The translations under genes were made by a program, and so were the position numbers. 64,000 bases of DNA, from contig JAGYJL010000005.1 in NCBI GenBank assembly GCA_018402015.1, positions 7,499 through 71,498 of the forward strand. The letters are read 5' to 3'. The notes under the pieces are model-generated. The model saw only the letters and a list, made by a program, of their open reading frames with translations. It was not told the DNA's origin and did not search any database. Numbering within the stretch: position 1 is the stretch's first letter; the number at the start of each line of letters is the position of its first letter. This DNA comes from Flavobacteriales bacterium. GTDB taxonomy: Bacteria > Bacteroidota > Bacteroidia > UBA10329. This document shows positions 753 to 25,743 of the stretch, piece after piece.

Positions 753-2075
753 ATGGGAAAGAAAATGAGTAAAACATATGCCCAAGTAGCCTTATTTCTC
801 TTGTTAATTGTTGGTTTGTTTGCCGCTTTTTACCCGACCGTTCATCCTTCGGGAGGAGAATTTGATTCGGGCGATATCGCTTGGCTCATTTCAGCTTCAG
901 GATTAGTTCTCATCATGACTCCTGGCCTTTCCTATTTCTACGGTGGAATGGTATCTGCCAAGAACATAATCTCCACCATGCTTCAGAGCTTTGTAGCGCT
1001 TGGAGTAATTACTGTACTATGGTTTGTGGTGGGTTTCAGTCTCAGTTTTGGAGATAGTATTGGCGGATTTATTGGAGATCCGCGCACATTTTTCATGTTT
1101 GATAATGTAGGAACTGCAGCTCATTCCACCATCGCTACAGGAATTCCTTTTGTGCTTTTTGCAGCCTTTCAACTCAAGTTTGCCATTATCACACCAGCAC
1201 TTATAACTGGCGCTTTTGCCGAACGCATCAAGTTTTGGGGATACATGCTTTTTATGGTCTTGTTCTGTCTGTTCATTTACACACCGTTGGCTCACTGGAC
1301 CTGGCATCCAGAAGGATTCCTCTTTAAGTGGGGCGTGCTCGATTTTGCGGGAGGAACCGTGGTTCACATCTCGGCAGGGATGGCCGCTTTGGCAGGTGCC
1401 ATGTTCTTTGGAAGAAGGAAAGTGCACATGGACAAAGTGGAGAACACACCGGTCAATATTCCGTACGTGTTGCTCGGCACAGGATTACTTTGGTTCGGTT
1501 GGTTCGGTTTCAATGCTGGTTCAGCCTTGGCAGCTGATGAATTGGCGGTAAGTGCTTTCGTGAATACCAATCTAGCTTCTGCTGCGGCTATGCTGGCTTG
1601 GTTGGTTTACGATTCAGCCCGTGGAAGAAAACCATCTGCTTTGGGAGGAAGTATTGGAGCAGTGGTAGGTCTGGTTGCTATTACACCAGCCGCTGGATTT
1701 GTGAGTTTCGGGGCAAGTATTGCTATAGGCATCACCGCCAGCATCGTTTCAAATATTGCCGTCCACCTGAAGTCAAAATCGACCTTAGATGATACCTTAG
1801 ATGTGTTTCCATGCCATGGTCTGGGTGGAATTGTAGGTATGATACTAACAGGTGTTTTTGCCTTGGATGGCGGATTGATCACGGGTGAAACGACCTTGTT
1901 TCTGAATCACATGTTGGCGCTGGTAATCGTTTGTGTCTTCACCTTTGGAGGAAGTTATTTGCTTTATTTCATCACCAACACCATCATTCCGCTTCGTGTG
2001 AGTGAGGAGGCTGAGGAGATCGGTCTGGATCTTACACAACATGACGAGAAGTACATTCTCGCACGCGTTGATTAA
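753..2075 (+). CDS. amt: Ammonium transporter (Amt family)
   Basis: 440 aa. It is polytopic and hydrophobic. Amt signatures are present: DFAGGTVVHISAG, LGTGLLWFGWFGFNAGS and a C-terminal GLDLTQHDE. Confidence 0.9.
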   Translation: MGKKMSKTYAQVALFLLLIVGLFAAFYPTVHPSGGEFDSGDIAWLISASGLVLIMTPGLSYFYGGMVSAKNIISTMLQSFVALGVITVLWFVVGFSLSFGDSIGGFIGDPRTFFMFDNVGTAAHSTIATGIPFVLFAAFQLKFAIITPALITGAFAERIKFWGYMLFMVLFCLFIYTPLAHWTWHPEGFLFKWGVLDFAGGTVVHISAGMAALAGAMFFGRRKVHMDKVENTPVNIPYVLLGTGLLWFGWFGFNAGSALAADELAVSAFVNTNLASAAAMLAWLVYDSARGRKPSALGGSIGAVVGLVAITPAAGFVSFGASIAIGITASIVSNIAVHLKSKSTLDDTLDVFPCHGLGGIVGMILTGVFALDGGLITGETTLFLNHMLALVIVCVFTFGGSYLLYFITNTIIPLRVSEEAEEIGLDLTQHDEKYILARVD

Positions 2076-2800
2076 TCTTCTACTTCATAAAGTAAGCGCA
2101 TAGTAATGCTGGCGGTCTTCTTTTTATCTGCAGTATTGAACGCGCCACCCCAACTGTAATCTTCGTTAGAGTTCTGCCCCGTAATTTGGAAGACTCCCAT
2201 GCTGGCAGATTCAAGATCTCCCAATTCACTTCCCGAATTTGCAGCAATGGTTTCCGCTCTTAGTCGAGCATCTTCCGTAGCCTTGCGGATCATCTCGATC
2301 TTCAGGTCGGCCATTTTCGTGTAGTAGTAGCGCGGAGCCTCAGAATAGAACTGAACGCCTTTGTTCATCAGTTCAGTAATTGAACGGGATAATTCTTCAA
2401 CCCGAGAAACTTCGTGCGATTCGATTTCCACCGACTGCGTCAATTGGTACCCCACAAACCTTGCTCCTATATAGTTCCCGTTCTGATATTGAGGTTCTGA
2501 CTGTTCCAATGTGCTGACTGCCTTAAATACCACTTGATCTTCTTTTAATCCTTTGGATAGTAAGTACGCTTTAATGATAGATTTGTCTTGTTCCAATGCA
2601 GCGTAAGCAGCTTTAAGATCGTTGTTTTCACGTACGAATCGCCCTTCCCAAACGATCAGATCGGATTCGAAATCTTCAGAGCCAAGCCCAGTGACGCTGA
2701 TGGTCCCGTTGGTTTCGGCACGTTCTACATAAGCGGTTCCTAAAAAATAGGCAGCTGCCACAATGGCAACGGAGAACAGAATGGCGTTTGTCGTTTTCAT
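2072..2800 (-). CDS. SIMPL domain (DUF541) periplasmic protein. The likely true start is MKTTNAILF, because the track ORF extends to 2830.
   Basis: The signal-anchor ILFSVAIVAAAYF, the overall 240-aa architecture and the C-terminal MRLLYEVED are typical of SIMPL / 26 kDa periplasmic immunogenic protein family members. Confidence 0.7.
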   Translation of the reverse strand: MKTTNAILFSVAIVAAAYFLGTAYVERAETNGTISVTGLGSEDFESDLIVWEGRFVRENNDLKAAYAALEQDKSIIKAYLLSKGLKEDQVVFKAVSTLEQSEPQYQNGNYIGARFVGYQLTQSVEIESHEVSRVEELSRSITELMNKGVQFYSEAPRYYYTKMADLKIEMIRKATEDARLRAETIAANSGSELGDLESASMGVFQITGQNSNEDYSWGGAFNTADKKKTASITMRLLYEVED

Positions 2801-5132: not shown

Positions 5133-6304
5133 ATGCCCGAATCGCCAATTCGTAAATTGGTTCCGTATGCAACCGCTGCTAAAGCAAGAGGTATTAAAGT
5201 ATACCATCTCAATATCGGTCAGCCAGATATAGAAACCCCAGAAGTGGCGCTGACCGCTATAAGGAACATCGATCGCAAGGTTATTGAATACAGTAATTCT
5301 GAGGGTTATGCCACTTATCGAAGTGGTTTGGCCAAGTATTACCAAAGTGTGGGTGTTGATGTAGCGGATACCGACATCATGGTTACCACAGGTGGCTCAG
5401 AAGCATTGATCTTCGGCTTTATGACCTGCATGGATCCGGGAGATGAGATCATTATTCCCGAACCATTCTACGCCAATTACAATGGTTTTGCTACCATGGC
5501 GGGCCTTAATGTAAAGCCCATCACTGCTAAAATTGAAGATGGTTTTGCGCTGCCACCTATCTCTGAGTTCGAGCGAAGAATTACCGAGAATACTCATTGC
5601 CATTCGTCACTTATCTGTAACCCTGGAAACCCTACAGGAACATTATACGGAAAGGAAAGCCTTGAAGCCTTGGCCAAGTTGGTCAAGAAATACGACCTTT
5701 TTCTGTTTGCCGATGAGGTTTACCGCGAATTCTGTTACGATAGTGCCATTCCTTTTTCGTGTATGAATTTGGAAGGAATTGAGAATAACGTGGTAATGGT
5801 AGATAGCGTGAGTAAACGCTACAGTATGTGTGGTGCAAGAGTTGGTGCTTTGGTTTCAGAAACAAGGAAATGATGACCAACGCTCAAGTTTGCACAAGCC
5901 AGATTGAGTCCACCAACACTTGGGCAGATTGCTGGCGAGGCCGCATTAAACACACCTCAAGAGTATTTTGATCGGGTGAAGGAAGAATACATGCAGCGCA
6001 GAAATGTGCTGATCGATGGATTGAATGCCATTGATGGTGTGACCAGTCCAAAACCCGCTGGCGCATTTTACGCCATGGCACAATTGCCTGTAGAGAGTGG
6101 CGATGATTTCTGCCAATGGATGTTAGAGAATTCAGCTTCGAAGGAGAAACAGTGATGATGGCTCCCGGAAGCGGTTTTTATTCAACTCGTGCATACGGAG
6201 AGAAGCAAGTTCGAATTGCTTATGTACTTAAAGAAGAAGACCTTAAGAGATCGGTTAAGATCATTGAAGAAGGTTTGAAAGTCTACCCAAGGAGAACCAA
6301 CTAA
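5133..6304 (+). pseudogene. PLP-dependent aminotransferase class I/II (AspC-like), disrupted. There are two in-frame TGA TGA stops at 5871-5876 with compensating indels, and a frameshift near 6125.
   Basis: Aminotransferase motifs are present: PESPIRKL..., FLFADEVYREF, SVSKRYSMCGARVGALVS, then LSPPTLGQIAGEAAL, then ETVMMAPGSGFY. A +1-frame reading NKEMMTNA restores the expected sequence between the pieces. The true start is taken as MPESPIRK because the first 27 codons of the track ORF overlap the upstream terminator hairpin. Confidence 0.55.
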
Positions 6305-6350: not shown

Positions 6351-7520
6351 TCAGATTGCCAGGAACCAACGATTTCTTCGATGGATTTTTCCAGCAATGA
6401 TCTGCTTTCTTAGTTCTGAAGAACCGGCCAGTTTGTCGAAGAAATCAGATTGGAAGAACTTGTTTTTTTCCGGGTAGTTCTCATAGGTTGATATGAGCCA
6501 ATCCAAGTTCAATTGCTTTAGGTTTCTGAGGCTGTCCAACGGCAACGAGGACAGGTCTATACCATTGCATTTCATCCCTTCAAATTTGGGATTTACAGCA
6601 ACTCCTTTAATGTCTTTGGGAGTGAAAGTGGTGTTTCCTTCAGGCATTTCAGGATAACCGAACTGCTGGAAAGGCTTATCCGTTCCACGGCCTTCGCTTA
6701 CAACCGTTCCTTCAAAAAAGCACAGACTCGGGTATAGATAAATAGCCTGCTGGTTAGGTAGATTGGGAGATGGGGCGATAGGCAATTCGTACGCATCATT
6801 TCGATCATAATCCATCATTTCAATGACGCTGAGTTCGCACTTTACACCATTTTTCAGCCAACCTTCCTCATTCACCATTTTGGCATATTCTCCAACCGTC
6901 ATTCCATGAACCACTGGAACCTCGTGCAAGCCTACGAACGATGAGAAGTCCTTCTGAAGAACCGGACCATCCACGTAATGCCCGTTCGGATTAGGGCGGT
7001 CGAGCACGATCAGTTGGATGCTATTCTCTGCACAGGCTTCCATCATGTAACTCATAGTACTGATGTAGGTGTAGAACCGTGCGCCTACATCTTGAATGTC
7101 AAAGATCACAACATCAAGACCTTGCAGTTGCTTGGCCGATGGCTTGTAATTGCTTCCATAAAGAGACATGATAGGCAGCCCTGTTTTCGGGTCTTTGCTA
7201 TCAGAGATCTTTGCGCCCGCACTTGCATTACCACGAAATCCGTGCTCAGGAGCAAATACGCATTTCACGTTTACGCCTAAACTCAAAAGTGTATCCACTA
7301 AATGGATCTTACCGACCACCGAGGTTTGATTGGCAACAATACCTACTGCTTTTCCTTCTATTCGAGGCAGGTATAAGTCTGTTCGCTGTGCTCCTAAAAC
7401 AAGCTGCTTCTGAATTTCTTCGATTGCTATGCCATCATTTGCTGGTGGTGGAGCAGGCACGGGTTGTCCGCAAGCAGAAAGCCACAGAACGGTAATGAGA
7501 TATTTGATAGTTTTAGCCAT
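6351..7520 (-). CDS. DUF1343 family exo-β-N-acetylmuramidase (NamZ/YbbC-like) lipoprotein
   Basis: Family-typical motifs: GIVANQTSV, VFAPEHGFRGN, DVVIFDIQDVGARFYTYISTM and RPNPNGHYVDGP. A lipoprotein-like N-terminus, MAKTIKYLITVLWLSACG, makes 7520 the likely start rather than 7556. Confidence 0.8.
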   Translation of the reverse strand: MAKTIKYLITVLWLSACGQPVPAPPPANDGIAIEEIQKQLVLGAQRTDLYLPRIEGKAVGIVANQTSVVGKIHLVDTLLSLGVNVKCVFAPEHGFRGNASAGAKISDSKDPKTGLPIMSLYGSNYKPSAKQLQGLDVVIFDIQDVGARFYTYISTMSYMMEACAENSIQLIVLDRPNPNGHYVDGPVLQKDFSSFVGLHEVPVVHGMTVGEYAKMVNEEGWLKNGVKCELSVIEMMDYDRNDAYELPIAPSPNLPNQQAIYLYPSLCFFEGTVVSEGRGTDKPFQQFGYPEMPEGNTTFTPKDIKGVAVNPKFEGMKCNGIDLSSLPLDSLRNLKQLNLDWLISTYENYPEKNKFFQSDFFDKLAGSSELRKQIIAGKIHRRNRWFLAI

Positions 7521-7556
7521 TATCCTTCGAGCACAAATCTCTTTCAAGGCAAGCAA

Positions 7557-8797
7557 TTGAACACACCTTTTTTTATTGCAAAACGCCTCATCCGAACAGA
7601 TGGGCGTGCCGAAAGTAGCAATATTTCAGGCACGCGGCCGATCGTGAGGATTGCCATTGCTGGCATTGCACTGGGATTAGCGGTTATGATCGTTTCCATG
7701 GCCATTGTTACGGGTTTTCAGAAAGAGATCACGGATAAAGTGGTCAATTTTGGTGCCGACATCATCATTACCGATTATTCCAATCTCAATGCCATAGAGC
7801 CACAGCCGGTTTCCAAAGAGCAGGACTTTTATCCAAGCCTAACGGAAATTGATGGCATACGACACATTCAGGTGTTTGCTACCAAAGCAGGTATTGTTAA
7901 AACAGACGAGGAAATTGAAGGGGTAGTTGTAAAAGGTGTTGGTAGCGATTTCGATTGGAGTTTTTTTCAGCGACACCTGATAGATGGGCAGGTTTTTGAA
8001 ACAACAGATAGTTCGCGCAGCAAGAATATTCTCATTTCAGAAAGTATCTCTAAGAAGTTGAAACTGAATGTTGGCGATAGAATGGAAGTGTTTTTCATTC
8101 AGGAAGAACGGCAGCGTGCGCGTGTATTTGATGTAACAGGAATCTATAAAACAGGCTTGGCGGAGTATGACGAACGATATGTAATTACTGATATTACACA
8201 TATTCAACGGCTCAATGGTTGGAGTTCGGATCAAGTTGCGGGCTTCGAAGTTTTCGTAGACGATTTTGGAGATTTGGATGAGTTGGAAGATGTGGTTTAC
8301 CACAGTATTGGTAATGACCTTTATTCGGCAACGGTAAAAGATCTGCAACCACAGATATTCGATTGGCTCGATCTTCAGGATATGAACGTAAGGGTTATCA
8401 TCATTCTGATGCTCGTAGTAGCAGGCTTCACACATGATTTCTGCTTTGCTCATCTGGTCATTGAGCGCGTTTATAATGATTCAGAACTCTGAAATCGCTT
8501 GGAATGAACGATGGAAACATACGTAACATCTTCATCTATCAAGCACTGTATCTAACGGGTGTTGGTCTGTTCTGGGGTAATCTGGTCGGAATTCTACTAT
8601 GCCTTATTCAAGATCGATTCGGCCTCGTCACTTTGGATGAAGCCAGCTATTACGTAAAAGTTGTTCCCATCAATTTAGACATCGCACACATTCTTCTGCT
8701 CAACACGGGTACGCTGTTCTTCTGCTTTCTAATGTTGCTTTTGCCTTCTATGGTGGTTTCCCGAATTCAGCCGCTCAAGGCCATTCGTTTCAACTAG
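7557..8797 (+). pseudogene. LolC/LolE-type FtsX-family ABC permease (lipoprotein release), disrupted by several frame changes around 8430-8500. The likely start is TTG at 7557.
   Basis: The N-terminal piece 7464..8492 carries FFIAKRLIRTDG, TGFQKEITDKV and DGQVFETTDSS. The C-terminal piece 8504..8797 carries GMNDGNIRNIFIYQALYLTGVG. The expected MISALL and VIERV segments appear in two different frames between the pieces. There is no ATG after the upstream gene; an in-frame TTG lies at 7557. Confidence 0.5.
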
Positions 8798-10530: not shown

Positions 10531-11308
10531 AAAAAGCAGCGAATTTCTTGGGTGTATCCGTATTGATGAAGTCAATACCCATGGCACGGAAAGTTTCCCA
10601 CGCGCTCGGGTGATCGGGAGATGCCCAAAGACGGAGTTTCTTGCCTTCAGCATGCACCTTTGAAATAAGTTTTCTGAGTTTCAACTGTTCGTCCTCGGGC
10701 ATTTCTCCTTTACCGTTCCACGAAAGATGGTTCTTGTAATGATCGCTGATTACGGGCATCACATCAGCAGAAATCTGCTTGCCAAAATCGCTGGGTCGTC
10801 CATCCAAAAAGGCCAGTTTCGGTTCGGCATTCAGAACCGCATCTGTGGGTCTTCCTCCCGAAAGGAAAACCGTGACGGCTCCCTGTTTCAGTTCACCATT
10901 TTCCACGGTGGTCAGCATGGATCGATACTTTTCCAATAGTTGTATCAGTCGATCGAATGTTTCTTTGCCGTGTCCCTTAAAATCGATCATCAGGTAAAAC
11001 GGCCCATCATAATTCGGATAAACCTTGCCGCCATTTTTCTGAACGTGCTCAAAAAGAGGTTTCAGGTACAGATTCTCTAGCGAACGTTTCTTATTTCTAC
11101 CCAACGGCCGAACGTGCGCCACATACAGGTCGCCTTTCATGAAATGCACATCTGCTTCTAAGGAAATCAGCTTGGCATCCAACGCTTCAAAAAGCGCAGG
11201 TTTGTTCAGGTAATCGTTGTGTGCGTGACCGGGAATGACCGTTTGGGCAAATGAAGGGAAAACGAAAAAGGAGAAAACGAAAAAGGAGATTGCGGCTAAG
11301 CGTTTCAT
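10511..11308 (-). CDS. Secreted PI-PLC-X / glycerophosphodiester phosphodiesterase-like protein
   Basis: The signal peptide MKRLAAISFFVFSFFVFPSFA is followed by HAHNDY near the mature N-terminus, the catalytic-His motif of the PLC-X/GDPD superfamily. Confidence 0.55.
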   Translation of the reverse strand: MKRLAAISFFVFSFFVFPSFAQTVIPGHAHNDYLNKPALFEALDAKLISLEADVHFMKGDLYVAHVRPLGRNKKRSLENLYLKPLFEHVQKNGGKVYPNYDGPFYLMIDFKGHGKETFDRLIQLLEKYRSMLTTVENGELKQGAVTVFLSGGRPTDAVLNAEPKLAFLDGRPSDFGKQISADVMPVISDHYKNHLSWNGKGEMPEDEQLKLRKLISKVHAEGKKLRLWASPDHPSAWETFRAMGIDFINTDTPKKFAAFFRTTSQ

Positions 11309-12938: not shown

Positions 12939-13491
12939 ATGTCAGATACCAACGCACAATACGATAAGGCGCTTGCCGAATACCGCAGCGAAATTTTCGT
13001 TGGCAAGATGAAAGACTATGGCGCTTCGTGGCGCATTTTCCGTCCGTCATCAATTACCGATCGAAACTATTCATAAGGCCAATCGCATTCACCCAGTTTG
13101 GAAGAAAAGGCGTGAGCAAGTAAGGAGGGCATCTATCCTGAATACATCGGTCAGTTAATTATTCCATCGTAGTCGTATTCAGTTGGAGCATGGACATGCA
13201 GATGAACCCGATCTGAATTTGGAAAGAGCCATTGCATGGTACGATCAGTACGCTGCAGAAGCTAAATCATTGATGGAAAAGAAGAATCATGACTATGGCG
13301 AAGCTTGGCGCGATATGCGCGTAAAGTCGCTGACAGATCTAATTCTTGTTAAAATTCTTCGCATTAAAGAGATGGAAGATAACCAAGGACAGAGCGAACT
13401 TTCCGAAGGAATTGATGCTAATCTGTACGATATGATCAATTACTCGATTTTTGCGTTGATTAAACTTGGTGAGACCAAGGCATCGGTATGA
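12939..13491 (+). pseudogene. DUF1599 domain protein (two internal repeats), disrupted between the repeats
   Basis: First repeat: MSDTNAQYDKALAEYRSEIFVGKMKDYGASWRIFRPSSITD, then a stop. Second repeat in ORF 13183..13491: AIAWYDQY...DYGEAWRDMRVKSLTDLILVKILRIKEME...INYSIFALIKL. In my recollection of Flavobacteriia synteny this family sits next to folP. Confidence 0.5.
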
Positions 13492-17567: not shown

Positions 17568-20500
17568 ATGAAGAAATTCCTCTTTCTACTAGCAGTAATA
17601 GTTACAGCCTCTGCTGGTATTTCATCGGCACAACAGCTTAAGTCGTTTACCCACGATAACGAGAAGTACATTCAAGAACTTCAGGATTTCTTCGCACAAG
17701 GCGATCCCAAAGCAGCTAAGAAGTTGATTGAGGAAACGTTTCTGCCCGTTTGGAACAGCGGACATTACAGCACGCAGCAGAAAGAGCGTGTTTATACCAT
17801 GTCCGACCTGATGTTGAAAGAGAAGAAAAAAGCGGTCGATTTCGAGAACTACCTGTACGCCCTCATGAGCTTTGCAAAAAGTATGAAGCCTGCATCCGAT
17901 TTCGATGCATTTCATGACGGTATGGAACAGACCATTCAGAAACTTTCCAGAAAGGGATTTACCAGTTATCTGGAAGTGTGTAGAGGCCTTTTTACCGAGT
18001 ACATTCTATTTGAATCGCCTGCAGTAAAATGGGTGGCAAAGTTCGATGCGTATAAGATCCAGTTCGATTCTTTACCGAAGATCGTTTTCGGAAAACTTGA
18101 CCTCAAAGCCTATTCAAAGCGCGATAGTTCGGTCATTTATGGAACCGAAGGTGTTTATTATCCAACCATTACCAAATGGGTCGGAAAAGGTGGAAAGATC
18201 GATTGGAGACGAGCAGGTTTCGACCCGAATAAGACCTACGCGGAGATTGACAATTATGTATTGAATACAACCAAATCTCAGTACGAAATAGACTCCGTAA
18301 CATTCCATCATCCCGATTATCTCGACCGTCCGCATATCGGAAAACTGACCGAGAAAATTCTTGCCGATGTGGATACTTCAGATGCTTCCTATCCTCGTTT
18401 CGACTCATACGATAAACGCATCGTTATTGAGAACATGTACAAGGACATCGATTATTCTGGTGGCTTCTCTCAGCACGGAGTCAAGTTTATCGGTTCAGGT
18501 GATGATGAGCAGAATGCTACGCTCATCTTCCGTAAGATGAACCACATCACCAAAGAGAACGAACCATTTATGGAAGCGCGCTCCAAGTCATTCGTTATTA
18601 GGCCAGAGAAGATCCTTTCCAAGAAATCGGAGATAGCTATGTACTATGAGGGAGATTCGATCTATCATCCCGGTCTACGTTTGAATTATAACGTTGAGAA
18701 TCATGAAGTAACGCTTAGTAAGGAAAGTGAAGGCTCGGGTCGGAGCCCGTTTTTCGATAGCTACCACAAGGTAGATATGCACGTAGATGAGATAAAGTGG
18801 AACATGGTTCAGGATTGGATGGATCTGGCCAACACCACTGGTGGCGCAGAAAGTAGTGCGCTGTTCGAGTCTGAGACCTATTACGATGAGTACCGCTACG
18901 ACCGCATTCGTGGCACTGCAGACACACATCCATTGTGGAAGATCCGGAACTACGCCAAGGAGATTGGAATGGAAGAGCTGACCGTAGAGCAAGTTGCACG
19001 CTTGTTCAAGGCGGATATAAGTGAGACCAAAGTGTTCCTAATGAACCTGTCCAACTCGGGTTTCATGACCTATAATTACGATAAGGAAATAGTGGTGATC
19101 AAACCGAGATTGCATCATTATGTGCTCTCTCGATCGCGGAAAACCGATTATGACATTCTTCAGTTCGAATCGACCATTGAAGGGTTGCCGAACGCGAAGC
19201 TCAATCTGTTGAATTGGGATATGGACCTCAATGGGGTAGGCAGAGTTTTCCTTTCAGATTCTCAGAACGTGGTCGTTTTCCCTTACGAACAAGAATTGAC
19301 GCTTAAAAAGAACCGTGATTTCTCGTTTGATGGAAAGGTTATCGGTGGTCGTTTAGACTTCTTTGGTCATGACTTTTACTTCAGCTACGATGATTTTAAG
19401 ATCAATCTTAATAAAGTCGATTCAATTCGTTTGAAAGTGCCAGATGGCGAGCCGGACGAAAATGGAAGGCAGAAACTGCGCGCTGTAAAAACCGTGCTTC
19501 GCGATCTGAAAGGAGAGCTCTTGGTGGATAGACCTGATAATAAATCAGGTCTCGTGGATCATCCGCGCTACCCGGTGTTCAATAGTACAGACGATTCGTT
19601 CGTATACTATGACAAACGCTCCATTCAGGATGGTGCGTACAAGAAGGAATCGTTCTACATGCACCTCAAACCATTCAGTATCGATAGTTTGGAGAACTTC
19701 ACCAAAGAAGGTCTGGCCTTTGGTGGAACCTTTGTCTCGGCAGGTATTTTCCCGGACTTTGAGGAAACCCTCACACTACAGCCCGACTTCTCGCTCGGTT
19801 TTGTTCGAGAAACACCACCCGAAGGTCTAGACATGTATGGAGGCAAAGGAAACTACAAGGCTACCATTAAACTCAGTCATGACGGTTTGCGTGGAGACGG
19901 TGATCTGGAGTATTTGACCTCGGTTTCCAAGTCAGATGATTTCATATTTTACCCCGATTCGGTGAACGGAGTTGCACAGGATTTTACCATAACCAAGCAG
20001 AAAAGCCCAACTGCTTATCCGCCAGTGGTGGGTAAAGATGTTCGGGTGCATTGGATGCCTAAGTTGGATCACTTCTATTCGTACAAGATCGATAACGCCT
20101 TTGATATGTACGAAGGCGAAGTGGCACATCATGGAGGCTTGGATCTCTCACCAAAAGGTTTGGATGGTTTCGGAAATCTCGATTTTGCGGATAGCTACAT
20201 GCGGTCTAACAGATTCAACTTCGATTACCGCGATTTCCATGCCGACACGGCCGATTTCAAGTTGAAAGGAAAGTCAGAGACATCCTACGCGTTTAAGACA
20301 AGTAACGTGCAAATGGATGTCAACCTCGATGATAGGAAGGGTAAGTTCAAATCCAATACGGGGGGCGATTACGTAGATTTTCCGGTTAACCAATACATCT
20401 GTTATATCGATGAGTTCGTTTGGAACATTGATGCTAAGGATATTGATGTCGTTTCCGATGGAGAAGGCTCGCGTTACGTAAGTACAAACCCAAAGCAAGA

Positions 20501-22018: not shown

Positions 22019-22092
22019 GGCTATGTAGCTCAACTGGATAGAGCACCTCACTACGGATGAGGAGGTTCGGGGTTCGAATCCCTGCATGGTCA
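22019..22092 (+). tRNA. tRNA-Arg (anticodon ACG), 74 nt, with no encoded CCA
   Basis: Manual fold: acceptor GGCTATG/CATGGTC with two G·U pairs, D-arm GCTC-AACTGGATA-GAGC, anticodon stem CCTCA/TGAGG with loop CTACGGA giving ACG, variable loop AGGTT, and T-arm CGGGG-TTCGAAT-CCCTG. Confidence 0.85.
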
Positions 22093-22104
22093 CAGCAAAA
22101 GGAA

Positions 22105-22126
22105 GGAGGCAGCAGCCTCCTTTTTT
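22105..22126 (+). terminator. Rho-independent terminator after tRNA-Arg
   Basis: ggaggc-agca-gcctcc followed by T6. Confidence 0.55.
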
Positions 22127-22147
22127 ATTGCCCTGCTTTAGCCATAG

Positions 22148-22324
22148 CGGAAGTTTACCATCGGGCTTTTCGGTAGCCGAATCATCATGGAGAAATTGAA
22201 CTATGTCCATCAGGATCCGGTCGAATCGCATCTTGTGCAATTTCCTGAACAGTATATTTACAGTAGCGCAGTGAACTATGCCGATGGCATCGGTCTGCTG
22301 GAAGTTGAACGCATTGGATATTGA
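22148..22324 (+). mobile_element. 3' remnant (~58 codons) of an IS200/IS605-family (COG1943, REP-associated tyrosine transposase-like) transposase gene. The N-terminal catalytic part is absent.
   Basis: The open frame RKFTIGLFGSRIIMEKLNYVHQDPVESHLVQFPEQYIYSSAVNYADGIGLLEVERIGY* resembles the C-termini of Bacteroidetes COG1943 transposases (...IHxNPVRAGLVxxPEDYxYSSAxxY...GLLEVE...). Only 55 nt separate the upstream in-frame stop (22145-22147) from the tRNA. Confidence 0.5.
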
Positions 22325-22507
22325 AATGAGAGCTATGGATGCTTTAGGAATGATGAATGCTTCGGAGATCAGTCAAATCCCGATAGCTATCGGGATGATC
22401 GTACCAAGTTCCACACAAGACATCCTGTGGAAGTCTTGCGTGATCGGGTGTTCTTTGTGCAATGACCTAAGATTGCTGCAAACAGCACGACTGCTTAAGA
22501 CACGGGA

Positions 22508-24016
22508 ATGAGAGCCGTGAGAACCATAGCGGGATCAATTATTGCCTTGCTGATATTTACGAAATGTCAGGTTCAGGCGCAGCCTATCCGGTTTTCGGAA
22601 CATTACGACCTGAACAATGGAGCCGGAGGCTTCTTGTCCGGGATCCATCTGGGAAATGATACGCTGCTTGTGGTCGGCTATAGTCTCAACCTGTCAACCA
22701 ACAGTGGGTACGATGAGGGGCATCATATAGTGATCGGATCGGAAGGCGAACTTATACATGAACACCAGTTGAGTGCACAACAGATAAGTTACAAGACCAA
22801 CAACATCATCCGTTCATCCTATTCAGATGCCATATTTTCGGCAGGATCTCATTGCGATTACAATGTGCCAAGCCCCGGCTACTGCGACTTCTACTTCGCT
22901 CGACTGGATGAGACAGGCGACACCCTTTTCACCAAGGTGCTCGCAAGGCCCGATACGAGCGACCTACTTTTGAGCATGGTGGAGACCCGCCCCAACAAGA
23001 TAATGCTCATCGGTTGGACCTACGATGACACCACCGATACCAATGCGGACATACTGCTCATTACCGTAGACACCCTTGGCAACGAGGTGAACAGGGTTGT
23101 TTATGGGGGGGGTGGTACGGATTATATCCATTCGGGTATCGTTATAAATGAAGATGGCGAGGTGTTGATGACGGGATATACGGCAAGTTTTGCCGGGTCG
23201 GATAATGACACCTGGTTGATCAAGACCGACAGCATTGGAAATGTTATCTGGCATCAGACCTATAATCATCTTTCTTCTTCTGGTGGTGACGCGGCATCAA
23301 GTGTAAGCAGGTCAAATGATGGAAACTTTTTTTTGGCAGGAGGAGCTGAGAATTCTTCAAGTGGAAATTCCGATGGTGTTCTTATGAAGATAACACCGGA
23401 TGGAGATCCGGTTTGGACAAAAAAGTACATCCCCAACAGTGGGTCGCAGAGTTTTTGGTCTGTCCAAGTTCTTCCCAACGGGGATATTGTGGCTGTCGGT
23501 CAAACAACTAATACTGATGACGGCAGTCAGGCCGGATGGTTGGTGAAAACCGATGCCAATGGTGACACCCTTTGGACACGCACGTACAACCCTTCTGATG
23601 CCACAGACCTGCTACGCAATATGTTGGTTATGCCCAACGGGGATATTGTGATGGTCGGTTTTGGCCGCGGAGAGAACTCCACCACACAGGATGGCTGGAT
23701 ATTGCGGGTAGATAGCATGGGGTGCTTGGTGGAGGGATGCTTTTCCGTAGGGATTGACGATAGAACGATTGACGATGAACGATTTGCGATTTTTCCAAAT
23801 CCTGCGGAGAACATTTTGAACATCGTTTCAGAACAAGCAATGGAAGAGGTCAGATTGTATGATATGCAAGGCCGCACGGTAAGTTCATTCATTTTGTTGC
23901 GTCAGCAAACCTTGGAGCTTGACGTTTCCGGGCTGAACGCAGGTCTGTTCATTCTGGAGGTGCTTGACACAGAGGGCATCCGCAATGTGAGAAAGGTTAT
24001 TGTTGAAAGGCCATGA
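22508..24016 (+). CDS. Secreted β-propeller-repeat protein with a T9SS type-A C-terminal sorting domain
   Basis: The signal peptide is MRAVRTIAGSIIALLIFTKCQVQA. Repeated DGWLVKTDxxGDTLWT / NGDIVxVG motifs are present. The C-terminus (FAIFPNPAENILNIV...LYDMQGRTVSS...LDVSGLNAGLFILEV) is a Por-secretion CTD. An internal G8 tract lies at 23105-23112. Confidence 0.75.
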   Translation: MRAVRTIAGSIIALLIFTKCQVQAQPIRFSEHYDLNNGAGGFLSGIHLGNDTLLVVGYSLNLSTNSGYDEGHHIVIGSEGELIHEHQLSAQQISYKTNNIIRSSYSDAIFSAGSHCDYNVPSPGYCDFYFARLDETGDTLFTKVLARPDTSDLLLSMVETRPNKIMLIGWTYDDTTDTNADILLITVDTLGNEVNRVVYGGGGTDYIHSGIVINEDGEVLMTGYTASFAGSDNDTWLIKTDSIGNVIWHQTYNHLSSSGGDAASSVSRSNDGNFFLAGGAENSSSGNSDGVLMKITPDGDPVWTKKYIPNSGSQSFWSVQVLPNGDIVAVGQTTNTDDGSQAGWLVKTDANGDTLWTRTYNPSDATDLLRNMLVMPNGDIVMVGFGRGENSTTQDGWILRVDSMGCLVEGCFSVGIDDRTIDDERFAIFPNPAENILNIVSEQAMEEVRLYDMQGRTVSSFILLRQQTLELDVSGLNAGLFILEVLDTEGIRNVRKVIVERP

Positions 24017-24143
24017 GGATTCTGCTGTCAATACAGGTGCACTTATCATTACGCTTGAGGGCGACAGCCAAGACCTTGATAGTGAGACGCTGATGGTGCA
24101 GTAACCCCAACAAGGTCGTGTACCTATTGTAAAAACAACAGAA

Positions 24144-24180
24144 AGCGGAGTTAGGCCCTATGCCTAACTCCGCTTTCTGT
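24144..24180. terminator. Bidirectional hairpin terminator between the convergent 22508..24016 and 24198..25163 genes
   Basis: A perfect 13-bp stem agcggagttaggc / gcctaactccgct with loop cctat. Confidence 0.55.
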
Positions 24181-24197
24181 ATTACAGACACGTGGTC

Positions 24198-25163
24198 TTA
24201 CGCGGGGGTGATCACCTCCATGTTGTAGCTTCCAGCTATGGCCGGGTCGGTGTTGGTCACGTTGAAGAAACTGCTTGTGGGGTTGCTGAAATCGCTGGCC
24301 TTTCCTTCAATTACAGCTCCGGGGGCAAGCGTAAGCCCATCCACCCCGCAGGCCAAGTTGGCGTCTGTGCTCTCGCAGAAGGTCAATGGCACCGTTCCAG
24401 TGTTGGTAATGATGATGGTGGCATTGGCCGCCATTCCCTGTAGAATATTGACCGTGGATAATGGTTCCACCGTACCGCTGTATTCCTCTTCGATAGGCGG
24501 TTTGCTGGCGTGCTGTTGCAGCAGGCTCACTTCAAAGTAGTTGAAAATGGTGTCGGGCGTCAGTCCGAACTTGTCCATGAGCGAACCGAGGTTACGATAC
24601 ATCATTACAGCAATGTCTTTTCGGGCGGCCTCCAGGTCGGTGCTGGCCTGTGCGCTGGTCTGTTCGCGTGCCTGCTGGGCATCGCGTGCGGCCTTGATGG
24701 TGGTGTAGAACCCATCCACCGTACCTTTGAGTGCGGCCAGTGGGGCATAAGAACCTAACGAGTCGCCAAGGGTCTTAACAGCGGCAATGCGCTCATCCTT
24801 TGTGCCTTGCTGTAGCGGTTCGCGGCCGCTTGGCAGCAAGGTGGTATGTTCTACCGTTCCTTTATCGTACTGCACCATAATGTTGGTGTCCCACTGCCGG
24901 GCCAATGTGGCCGAAAGACTGTCTAGCATGGCATCTACCGTTTGCGTAGCGCCTTTGTAAAAGGCCTGTTCGCTTTTCCAGTTGCTATACCGTTGCAAAT
25001 AAAGATCGTGCACCGGAGTGGTGCGGTTAAGTAAGATGAGAATGTCGGGGTCGGCCTGTTGCGCCAGCAGTTTGGCGTAGTGGTCGTTGGTCACTGTCAG
25101 CATCAGTCGGTAAGAACCAACCGTTGCATTGTCGAACTGATTTTCAAGATAATGCCATTCCAT
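24198..25163 (-). CDS. Hypothetical cytoplasmic protein (321 aa) with no recognisable domain. Its composition is atypical, about 56% GC in a sampled 100 nt against about 42% for housekeeping genes here.
   Basis: Long clean ORF with no signal peptide. GC enrichment is judged by eye from a manual count of 100 nt. It lies inside the tRNA-flanked islet. Confidence 0.55.
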   Translation of the reverse strand: MEWHYLENQFDNATVGSYRLMLTVTNDHYAKLLAQQADPDILILLNRTTPVHDLYLQRYSNWKSEQAFYKGATQTVDAMLDSLSATLARQWDTNIMVQYDKGTVEHTTLLPSGREPLQQGTKDERIAAVKTLGDSLGSYAPLAALKGTVDGFYTTIKAARDAQQAREQTSAQASTDLEAARKDIAVMMYRNLGSLMDKFGLTPDTIFNYFEVSLLQQHASKPPIEEEYSGTVEPLSTVNILQGMAANATIIITNTGTVPLTFCESTDANLACGVDGLTLAPGAVIEGKASDFSNPTSSFFNVTNTDPAIAGSYNMEVITPA

Positions 25164-25295
25164 GATCGGTATTTTTAAAGGTTATACCAGCATTAACTGA
25201 GGCCACGATTGGTTTATTTTTTGGCATATTCTGCTTTAACATTTCTTCACAATTGTGCACTACAACCGTGGCGCATGGATGCCCGACAACGGAAT

Positions 25296-25589
25296 GGCAC
25301 GCCACAGTTGTTCGGTGCGATCGGCAGCGTAGAGAATGCCACGCCACAGTTGTTCGGTGCGATCGGGAGCGTAGGGAACGGCACGCTACAGATGTTCGGT
25401 CTGATCGGGAGCGTACCGAATGCCACGCCACAGATGTTCGGTGCGATCGGGAGCGTAGGGAATGGCACGGCACAACTGTTTGGTACGATCAGGAGCGTAC
25501 CGAATGGCACGCCACAGTTGTTCGGTGCGATCGGGAGCGTAGAGAATGGCACGGCACAACTGTTTGGTGCGATCGGGAGCGTACAGAAT
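25296..25589. repeat. Tandem minisatellite: 7 copies of a 42-bp unit (consensus ggcacgccacagttgttcggtgcgatcgggagcgtagagaat), plus a degenerate 8th copy upstream at about 25263-25295
   Basis: Units start at 25296, 25338, 25380, 25422, 25464, 25506 and 25548, with 3-8 substitutions per unit. The period is 3×14, and 4 of 6 frames are open across the array (track ORFs 25209-25607+, 25253-25603+, 25247-25624- and 25144-25473-). Confidence 0.9.
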
Positions 25590-25647
25590 CCGACTACACT
25601 TAGTTGAAATTGCTTCACCACCAACTGTGCAGAAGTGGCGGTGCGGT

Positions 25648-25693
25648 GGTTCGGGGTTCGAATCCCTGCATGGTCACAGCAAAAGGAAGGAGG
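25648..25693 (+). repeat. Direct repeat of the 3' ~30 nt of tRNA-Arg plus its downstream terminator stem (att-like duplication); identical to 22064-22109
   Basis: ggttcggggttcgaatccctgcatggtcacagcaaaaggaaggagg occurs at both places. Upstream of the copy the sequence (ggcggtgcggt) diverges from the tRNA body. Confidence 0.8.
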
Positions 25694-25710
25694 TTTAGCC
25701 TCCTTTTTTT
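25689..25710 (+). terminator. Hairpin plus T-tract following the partial tRNA copy
   Basis: ggagg-tttag-cctcc followed by T7. Confidence 0.5.
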
Positions 25711-25743
25711 ATTCCCACCAATCAAATAACCACTTTATTACAT

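Follow-up and report, generated by a model that had tools for sequence, protein, structure and literature searches.

The 3′ halves of tRNA genes are classical integrase targets, and the 64-kb stretch of DNA analysed here (the window) contains an intact tRNA-Arg(ACG) whose 3′ end is repeated beyond a short islet. This arrangement raises the question of whether the islet is a decayed integrative element or an insertion hotspot, as a preliminary description proposed, and whether its contents, namely a transposase fragment, two protein genes and a tandem repeat array (Table 1), form a random assortment or belong together.

Table 1 Features of the islet and its boundaries in the window.
Feature	Position	Strand	Basis or remark
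tRNA-Arg(ACG), intact, insertion target	22019..22093	+	ARAGORN; Rfam tRNA 63.4 bits
Left direct-repeat copy (attL-like): tRNA 3′ part and terminator hairpin	22058..22133	+	Exact core 22064-22109
RAYT/IS200-like (Y1) transposase, C-terminal remnant, truncated on tRNA side	22148..22324	+	Frame-3 translation ...MEKLNYVHQDPVESHLVQFPEQYIYSSAVNYADGIGLLEVERIGY (stop)
Hairpin element, 32 nt, 10-bp stem CAAGACATCC/GGAAGTCTTG	22409..22440	+	68 bp upstream of T9SS gene
T9SS type A cargo protein, 502 aa, beta-propeller and Por_Secre_tail	22508..24016	+	PF18962 E = 8e-12; NCBIfam delta-60 repeat, TIGR04183
Perfect hairpin, 19-bp stem, between two convergent genes (bidirectional terminator)	24138..24180	.	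Repeat search; conserved with changed stem bases in L060
321-aa acidic protein: N-terminal long-helix bundle and C-terminal jelly-roll/cupin-like beta-sandwich	24198..25163	-	Large unannotated family
AT-richer spacer, 41% GC, likely promoter of 321-aa gene	25164..25291	-	Conserved blocks GTTAAA, ACAATA, TAACCTTTAAA (alignments)
Palindrome CACAATTGTG in spacer	25248-25257		
Non-coding tandem array, 42 bp x 7.1	25292..25589	-	TRF, 84% matches
Block ATTTCAACTAAGTGTAGTCGG (gene orientation), directly distal to array	25590..25610	-	Conserved in L005, partly in L008
Right direct-repeat copy (attR-like): displaced tRNA 3′ part and terminator	25642..25716	+	Exact core 25648-25693; runs on into ancestral downstream DNA

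An islet inserted at tRNA-Arg(ACG)

ARAGORN and Rfam agree on the tRNA already recognised at the left end of the islet, which is the sole tRNA in the window and was found by alignment to be colinear with the tRNA of locus L014 and of other relatives. The repeat of its 3′ end and terminator, earlier put at 46 nt, recurs exactly over that length (shuffles predict 0 matches) and is in fact wider: it spans 52 nt with 2 mismatches from 22058/25642, is interrupted by a hairpin loop that differs between the copies (CAGCAG versus TTTAG), and then resumes with the 3′ terminator arm, the T-run and ATT.CC (22114-22133 ~ 25697-25716), for a full length of ~76 bp per copy. The preliminary description had asked whether tRNA-Arg directly precedes the YwqK-like genes elsewhere; it does so in L014, where two MORN/YwqK-like genes (homologues of MORN184 and MORN290) and then a CHU_C giant protein follow the tRNA, and the other 7 of 8 relatives have unrelated DNA at this point, including one with a flank protein 95% identical. 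Three contigs terminate at the tRNA. The right tRNA fragment is colinear with the downstream DNA of the empty L014 site in a three-way alignment (blastn match L014 11660-11770), and the GC content of the islet is 50.5%, against 44.2 ± 1.0% in other 3.5-kb windows (z = 6.6). The exact repeat, the empty site, the variable DNA among relatives, the outlier composition and a RAYT-like tail truncated beside the tRNA copy together show that the DNA from ~22134 to 25641 has been inserted at the 3′ half of tRNA-Arg(ACG), between the direct copies. The ancestral arrangement, with MORN genes directly after the tRNA, survives in L014, and the tRNA site acts as a hotspot or synteny break.

As previously noted, no integrase or integrase fragment is present in the islet: it holds just three ORFs (RAYT-like tail, T9SS gene and 321-aa gene), none of them large enough to encode one, and no integrase was seen downstream of the tRNA in relatives. 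Decay is plausible, as there is no integrase and the truncation of the RAYT-like gene coincides exactly with the tRNA-side boundary. We infer that the islet would have arrived by recombination of the tRNA 3′ end with a circular element bearing its copy (a Campbell-type event, normally integrase-mediated), and that its tRNA-proximal part would have been lost later, given the same two observations. Counted against this account are the missing integrase, the failure to find the element in intact form, and an identity block that passes from the tRNA into the terminator, whereas a minimal att core would not usually do so.

The direct repeat might instead stem from a RecA homologous single crossover of a circle carrying a copy of the tRNA-Arg 3′ end, or from local duplication followed by insertion, in which case there would never have been a strict integrative element. 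Such an origin, which we hold to be improbable, would suit a T-stem pair specific to the host lineage and common to both copies (C...G, where L014 has T...A in the three-way alignment), as well as the reach of the repeat into the terminator, the missing integrase and a comparable 62-bp direct repeat around a small HicAB cassette in L002. However, within the tRNA, at 22058-22064/25642-25648, identity falls abruptly from 100% to about 50%, as is typical of att junctions, and the site is filled by different DNA in seven relatives. The islet itself is an ordinary one beside a tRNA, without an integrase. What the proposal of a decayed integrative element or hotspot had right is the insertion beside the tRNA, the variability of the site and the plausibility of decay; the cargo is, however, not a random assortment.

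Composition and history of the cargo

The RAYT-like fragment, 58 aa at 22148-22321, matches NCBIfam REP_Tyr_transpos only over the last 27 positions of the profile (120-146 of 146; E = 0.01, below cut-off) and has no Pfam match; the HUH motif and the catalytic Tyr domain (PF01797) are absent, and the last 46-58 aa remain. Judged by these comparisons, it is a remnant and not a functional IS200/IS605 or RAYT member. A near-identical tail lies beside a homologue of the 321-aa gene in L060, with a similar tail in L024, so that the transposase remnant reported at the left end is real, if weakly matched, but is not debris of the islet end: the RAYT-like gene is the next neighbour of the array and 321-aa gene in the closest relatives, and is an ancestral neighbour of the 321-aa gene.

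The 502-aa protein had been described as a T9SS type A beta-propeller protein, and both its Por_Secre_tail sorting domain and its beta-propeller repeats were recovered, the sorting domain with scores that pass curated cut-offs (PF18962, 45.7 bits versus 27; TIGR04183, 36.1 versus 23). L060 lacks a T9SS gene at the matching position, where the terminator of the 321-aa gene homologue is directly followed by the RAYT-like tail; the T9SS gene thus probably came in later, as a secondary insertion that separated the 321-aa gene from the RAYT-like gene. The 32-nt hairpin upstream of the T9SS gene has two copies in L002, identical save for the loop, which lie upstream of the L002 T9SS gene and flank the HicAB cassette.

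The 321-aa protein, earlier called domain-less, indeed has no match in Pfam, NCBIfam, PHROG, PADLOC or PDB sequences, and it belongs to a family with 1,511 representatives at 50% clustering that is absent from IMG/VR. Family proteins are ~230-330 aa long, combine a long-helix bundle with a variable beta domain, and are acidic (pI 4.4-4.9, net charge -12 to -25); neither a ToxN-like or other nuclease-like fold nor a winged-helix, HTH or clear RHH fold was found for the protein, and a partner NTPase lies near the family gene in one locus only. The gene has a GC content of 54.2%, against 44.3 ± 1.6% (z = 6.1), and a GC3 of 0.65, against 0.36-0.55 in every other ORF; its reported excess of 14 points is accordingly genuine in direction but amounts to about 10 points above background when properly computed. 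As homologues also exceed their own flanks by 3-9 GC points in 11 of 12 other loci, the excess travels with the gene family and is at best weak evidence for recent import. The strong bias towards C-ending codons suggests that the product may be highly expressed.

The array and the gene form a conserved pair

The 42-bp unit of the array occurs nowhere else in the window. Across ~30 independent loci, a non-coding array with a period of 41-42 bp lies 70-320 bp upstream of the family gene, and these other pairs are found without a tRNA. Among the 25 loci having at least 200 bp of upstream DNA, the best upstream self-match falls at a shift of 41/42 or 82-84 in 22, while L041 and L052 give a weak signal only at 83-84. 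Arrays of this period in the 551 kb examined number 33 upstream of family genes and 4 elsewhere. The pairing persists to 26-30% protein identity and is also seen in a high-GC locus without a nearby T9SS gene. Copy number ranges from 2 to 12, and it is the period that is kept, not the unit sequence: the proteins of L040 and L043 are 83% identical and their promoter region is conserved, yet their arrays are unrelated, and no motif is common to 21 independent arrays. The core cargo of the islet is thus a self-contained two-part module, array plus acidic-protein gene, that is widespread and undescribed. The module is often situated in variable regions, for example beside HicAB in L002.

The preliminary description took the array for a minisatellite (VNTR), a reading under which it would be neutral and its proximity to the 321-aa gene accidental. 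A minisatellite-like array is present, and higher-order periods of 84 and 126 bp within arrays imply expansion by unequal crossing-over, with copy number differing among related loci (6.7 in L042, 5.0 in L044). Nevertheless, the arrays are not visibly hypervariable, being 100% identical between independent samples, and chance placement is contradicted by the conserved upstream period and by the near absence of such arrays elsewhere in the 551 kb; as some 30 loci keep both period and position, even where protein identity is down to 26%, we find the neutral explanation very hard to credit. The array is not a CRISPR array either, as its units run head to tail with no spacers. Orphan arrays in L040 and L017 sit between convergent genes, upstream of no promoter.

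Does the array act as DNA or RNA?

The arrays are non-coding, several having stops in all six frames. Comparison with Rfam 15 gave no match to the array, with thresholds of E <= 1 for the window region and E <= 0.5 for 14 other loci, and folding z-scores were mixed. Many units hold a short inverted repeat; across units, stem positions comprised 28 G.T, 20 A.C and 33 other mismatches with only 4 compensated pairs, and no strand-biased wobble pattern was found in the stems. Complementarity of the array to the start region was no better than chance for 18 of 21 loci and marginal in the window, L042 and L049. A sense-strand hairpin with a T-run occurs in the array-gene spacer of 1 of 21 loci, and the spacer in the window has no terminator. 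Most loci have a terminator 10-95 bp upstream of the array, at only 10-35 bp in several, so that an array promoter would have little space. Between array and gene lie promoter boxes or conserved blocks. The ATG is preceded at 67 nt by a canonical Bacteroidetes -7 box (TAnnTTTG) in both L040 and L043, and at 75 nt by a box with one mismatch in L008.

If the array were transcribed and cut into 41-42-nt units acting with or against the protein, the geometry of an RNA-protein complex could dictate unit length. This would fit the layout of the module, with a tandem array of 2-12 copies, conserved in length but not in sequence, upstream of a single protein gene, and also the inverted repeats and the frequent placement in variable regions. 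Type III toxin-antitoxin families have repeats of 31-62 nt in 1.9-5.6 copies, and a palindromic terminator between repeats and toxin gene is a criterion for them (PMC3401426). The module has the tandem repeats upstream of a protein gene, but such a terminator is found in 1 of 21 loci only and no ToxN/CptN/TenpN-type endoribonuclease is encoded. The distances of 10-35 bp from upstream terminator to array are too short for a promoter, the protein is strongly acidic, the stems show no strand-biased wobble and almost no compensatory substitution, unrelated arrays stand beside 83%-identical proteins, and neither Rfam nor PADLOC gives a match. A repeat-RNA/protein system is, on this evidence, unlikely.

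The array might also be the binding site of the encoded protein and serve the replication, partition or autoregulation of a small mobile module, as iterons do with Rep. F sopC, which consists of 12 x 43 bp bound by SopB, is the closest parallel in unit length. We consider such a function quite doubtful: the acidic protein has no recognisable DNA-binding fold, a partner NTPase was seen in one locus only, array sequence is swapped between 83%-identical proteins, the 21 arrays have no motif in common, and the family does not occur in IMG/VR.

We tentatively favour a reading in which the array would act as DNA and not RNA. A length of 41-42 bp corresponds to 3.9-4.0 turns of B-DNA, and the array would be a phased architectural or regulatory element, with about four helical turns per unit, just upstream of the promoter of the gene; periodicity and copy number would matter rather than unit sequence. 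Against this reading stands the lack of a common motif, and to our knowledge a sequence-free, period-fixed cis element has no established bacterial precedent. The orphan arrays, and canonical promoter boxes in three loci only, also sit uneasily with it.

A wider proposal, to which we would give somewhat less than even odds, is that array and acidic protein are two parts of an undescribed system in which the 41-42-bp length stays fixed, being kept up or restored irrespective of unit sequence, implying a molecular ruler. Such a system would extend over >1,500 protein clusters, from Bacteroidota and apparently from one further lineage or more. If this is true, the ruler could be a protein or complex reading four helical turns of DNA, or a new repeat-RNA/protein assembly resembling type III toxin-antitoxin only in layout, and the tRNA-bounded islet would be one case of the module having moved horizontally. 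For the whole explanation preferred here, comprising insertion, integrative arrival, the array/gene module and a phased-DNA mechanism, we estimate a probability of roughly 0.5.

Comparison with known systems

An intact tRNA at one end, a direct repeat of its 3′ part at the opposite end, a relative whose site is empty, atypical composition and a site that varies among relatives are what the islet shares with tRNA-targeted genomic islands of the tyrosine-integrase type. Unlike them, it lacks an integrase, measures only 3.6 kb, has a repeat that takes in the tRNA terminator, and owes part of its compositional signal to the cargo gene family itself.

Like REPtrons, in which RAYT genes accompany REP arrays (BIMEs), the module adjoins a RAYT-like (Y1) gene in the window, L060 and L024, and its array units hold short palindromes. 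The RAYT gene is, however, decayed in these three loci and absent from most other module loci, and the units are arranged head-to-tail instead of alternating and are not dispersed elsewhere in the window. Plasmid centromeres and iterons (F sopC, parC, rep iterons) share with the module phased tandem direct repeats beside a gene, a unit of about 4 helical turns in the case of sopC, and dyad-symmetric cores in many units; the module, in contrast, has no recognisable DNA-binding fold, partition ATPase or Rep, its loci are chromosomal, and array sequence is unmatched to the protein.

Type III loci (ToxIN, CptIN, TenpIN; Blower et al. 2012, PMC3401426) differ from the module in their intervening terminator and in their protein, that of the module being acidic, twice as long and of an unrelated fold (helix bundle plus jelly roll); the module also shows no sign of RNA structure, reaches up to 12 copies, and keeps a period of 41-42 against 31-62, which is far tighter. 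What the two have in common is a non-coding tandem array directly upstream of one gene, with units of about 40 nt whose length is specific to the family and whose sequence is free.

An insertion at tRNA-Arg(ACG)

The last 30 nt of tRNA-Arg(ACG) together with the following 16 nt (22064–22109) are duplicated exactly at 25648–25693, with a chance expectation of none. The repeat is wider than the 46 nt of the preliminary description: it comprises 52 nt with two mismatches, a differing loop (CAGCAG versus TTTAG), the 3′ terminator arm, a T-run and ATT.CC, and each copy of ~76 bp holds the 3′ part of the tRNA and the entire terminator. The earlier statement that no integrase is present also held, as no ORF inside the islet is able to encode one.

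Features of the islet in window coordinates
Feature	Position	Strand	Remark
tRNA-Arg(ACG)	22019–22093	+	sole tRNA of the window
RAYT/IS200-like protein tail	22148–22321		58 aa
T9SS type A β-propeller gene	22508–24016		502 aa
Terminator	24138–24180		perfect 19-bp stem, between convergent genes
321-aa gene	24198–25163	−	
AT-richer spacer			128 bp, between 321-aa gene and array
Tandem array	25292–25589		42 bp × 7.1

The search for relatives covered one genome per species, used the C-terminal portion of the left-flank protein as query and gave 12 related loci, in 11 of which tRNA-Arg(ACG) lies directly 3′ of the left-flank gene. L014, a Flavobacteriales MAG whose flank is 84% identical, has homologs of both MORN (YwqK-like) genes and of the CHU_C giant protein immediately after the tRNA, the arrangement that the preliminary description had proposed to look for. 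In a three-way alignment, the left copy of the repeat is the continuation of the tRNA and the right copy runs on into ancestral downstream DNA (CACTTTATTACATTTGCA...); the 3.6 kb are therefore extra DNA. Both window copies have in common a compensated, lineage-specific T-stem pair (C...G, versus T...A in L014), and identity falls abruptly from 100% to ~50% at 22058–22064, the pattern expected of a recombination junction.

Seven other relatives, one with 95% flank identity, carry unrelated genes 3′ of the tRNA, none with a homolog anywhere in the window, and three related contigs terminate at the tRNA. No integrase was found among the scanned downstream genes of relatives. The tRNA-Arg(ACG) site is a hotspot or synteny break, and the initial reading of the islet as an insertion at a hotspot is borne out by L014, which lacks it, by the alignment and by the unrelated DNA in the seven relatives. 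By itself, such a tRNA islet is routine; what gives it value is the cargo, a member of a family of >1,500 clusters without annotation in any library tested.

A recurring array–gene module

The cargo had been described as an unrelated GC-rich gene and a VNTR. This was wrong, as array and gene form a recurring module. In each of the first three long contigs examined, a relative of the 321-aa gene is preceded by a 42-bp-period tandem array (reported as 126 bp in L005), with differing unit sequences and no tRNA nearby. A metagenome scan added 33 loci. In loci with ≥200 bp of DNA ahead of the gene, the best self-match fell at a shift of 41/42 or 82–84 in 22/25 loci, with a weak signal at 83–84 in two more, and the pairing extends to relatives at 26–43% identity (L054, L056, L058 and L061), including L054, a GC-rich locus without T9SS genes in the vicinity. 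Over the 551 kb examined, TRF found 33 arrays of 41–42-bp period upstream of family genes and 4 elsewhere. The cargo is a self-contained array–gene module of ~1.5 kb that, as far as the libraries and literature searched can tell, is undescribed; nothing relevant was found in the literature on 41/42-bp bacterial arrays. At the contig end of L059, a second array (1535–1733, 84-bp period) follows the family gene, which suggests tandem modules, and L058 has a gene for a ParA-family ATPase running divergently from the module.

Close relatives of the 321-aa protein number 28, none named and none with Pfam domains. When 1.84 billion representatives were searched with a profile, 1,511 members of the family were recovered at E ≤ 1e-3, and 589 at the stricter E ≤ 1e-30; the family size of >1,500 refers to clusters at 50% identity. 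The family is unmatched in Pfam, NCBIfam, PADLOC, PHROGs and PDB sequences. A phage origin was rejected on the lack of a PHROGs match, on IMG/VR, in which no locus of the family was found, and on BFVD, which gave nothing beyond small jelly-roll domain matches. Among family proteins, P0037 has its helical domain duplicated in tandem, and P0142 has a jelly-roll domain inserted inside the helix bundle. Just downstream of the family gene in L049 is a near-threshold match to Acido-Lenti-1 RNA (1706–1751, +; 35.2 bits versus a gathering score of 37, E = 2e-4), which hints that this locus may derive from Acidobacteria or Lentisphaerae and that the family may thus reach beyond Bacteroidota.

The GC excess is a property of this family. 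The islet is an outlier, as had been suspected, at 50.5% GC versus 44.2 ± 1.0% in other 3.5-kb windows, and its tetranucleotide distance falls at the upper extreme of the values for the window; GC is 54.2% in the 321-aa gene, an excess of ~10 points and not the 14 first estimated, and 58.7% in the array. The gene is the sole ORF in the window with such codon usage (GC3 0.65, 72% C at two-fold pyrimidine-ending codons). Its homologs are likewise GC-richer than their own flanks, by 3–9 points in 11/12 other loci, which makes the GC and codon signal in the window a trait of the family. This trait could come from high expression or chronic mobility, and gives no date for the insertion.

Neighboring genes

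In L060, whose protein is 82% identical, the same RAYT-like tail as in the window (FPEQYIYSSAVNYADGMGLLEVERIGY*) comes right after the terminator of the gene, with no T9SS gene between, and L024 has a decayed RAYT-like ORF at the corresponding relative position. The ancestral block of this clade was thus array, gene and, on the other strand, a RAYT-like gene; either the window T9SS gene is a secondary insertion or L060 has lost its copy. The window RAYT-like gene is cut at its tRNA-side edge, which fits a deletion there that would have cut this gene and removed an integrase. A word-indexed search for homologs of the RAYT remnant found nothing. All-against-all BLAST of flanking ORFs revealed no conserved neighbors, bar distant T9SS β-propeller relatives (21–26% identity, 4–5 loci), which we judged non-specific, the genomes being T9SS-rich.

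The 19-bp-stem terminator is conserved in L060 (~1130–1170) with bases changed on both arms (AGTTAGGC/GCCTAACT versus AGTTCGGC/GCCGAACT). A 32-nt hairpin, TTCCACACAAGACATCC-NNNN-GAAGTCTTGCG, occurs at 22409–22440 in the window and at 13085–13116 and 13964–13995 in L002, and is kept although the module proteins of the two genomes share only 68% identity. In both it lies upstream of a T9SS gene that converges on the module. The L002 hairpin belongs to a 62-bp direct repeat on either side of a HicAB cassette, an arrangement that resembles the tRNA-end duplication of the window. The window also contains 15-bp tandem repeats of 2.3 copies at 23752–23784, within the T9SS gene and directly ahead of its sorting domain, and of 2.5 copies at 11254–11289.

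Nature of the array

Units are homogenized inside each array (74–98%), often with 84- or 126-bp higher-order periods, and likeness between arrays is detectable only among nearest relatives: the window unit matches those of L005 and L024 at 25–27 of 42 positions (null, 18 ± 1.4). A shared motif suspected by eye, ACAAnTG, was not borne out, as no 7-mer with ≤2 free positions occurred in ≥8 of 21 independent arrays. L040 and L043 have proteins 83% identical and promoter-proximal DNA 78% identical, yet unrelated arrays; array sequence is therefore replaceable. L040 carries the L043-type array as two orphan arrays in the same orientation (5151–5493 and 7209–7715, 78% identical to that of L043), which flank a T9SS FG-GAP β-propeller gene and look like either one array split by that gene's insertion or landing sites. 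In four cases, arrays from independent samples were 100% identical; the arrays are thus not visibly hypervariable. A 21-nt block directly distal to the window array (25590–25610; ATTTCAACTAAGTGTAGTCGG in gene orientation) has diverged less than the arrays themselves: L005 retains ~20 of 22 positions and L008 a part of it. The block may serve the module as a boundary or as a regulatory element. In L017, a MAG labelled Chryseobacterium gleum, a 42-bp × 2.2 array (17576–17666) lies between two convergent genes ~6 kb downstream of tRNA-Arg, with no family gene detected at the locus.

A coding repeat was ruled out by 41-bp periods in five loci and by stops in all six frames in the arrays of L035, L038, L039, L049 and L056. 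The results also speak against a structured or processed RNA: no Rfam family matches the arrays, RNAfold of unit dimers against shuffles gave mixed z-scores with no consistent extra stability, and the best hairpins of 21 arrays, taken together, had 81 disrupted or wobble pairs (28 G·T, 20 A·C and 33 other mismatches) versus 4 compensated pairs, without strand bias. Antisense control of the start codon was rejected: the window has a 9-nt match (GAATGGCAC), but in nearly all loci arrays are no more complementary to the translation start than expected by chance.

Intrinsic terminators typically lie 10–95 bp upstream of the array, with typically none between array and gene, the reverse of the type III toxin–antitoxin layout (PMC3401426). 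Canonical Bacteroidetes promoter boxes occur between array and gene in L040, L043 and L008, and conserved blocks in the window clade; neither search nor inspection by eye found a sigma-54 or canonical promoter inside array units. A period of 41–42 bp corresponds to four turns of B-DNA. Phasing with the palindrome at 25248–25257 was rejected, as its distance to the array motif, 55 bp, is not a whole number of turns. Because the RNA tests were negative, and given the terminator placement, the promoter boxes or blocks and the acidic protein, we favor a reading in which the array would be a DNA-level element just upstream of the gene's own putative promoter; the existence of orphan arrays speaks against it.

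The tRNA-Arg(ACG) locus and the 42-bp arrays are both systematically under-assembled: assemblies of relatives break exactly at the tRNA (L012, L015, L019), and short-read contigs at the array edge (L001, L003, L004, L055). Gene callers run through arrays and fuse their translation to the family gene (L058 125–967 (−) and 971–2404 (+); L029 220–1497), and the N-terminus of P0073 (477 aa) consists of spurious 14-aa repeats; such spurious ORFs, gene fusions and assembly breaks are a practical warning. Over phylum-level divergence the array keeps its period but undergoes complete turnover of its sequence. More than once, a conserved array next to a single gene has been the sign of new biology; CRISPR, type III toxin–antitoxin RNAs and plasmid centromeres are examples.
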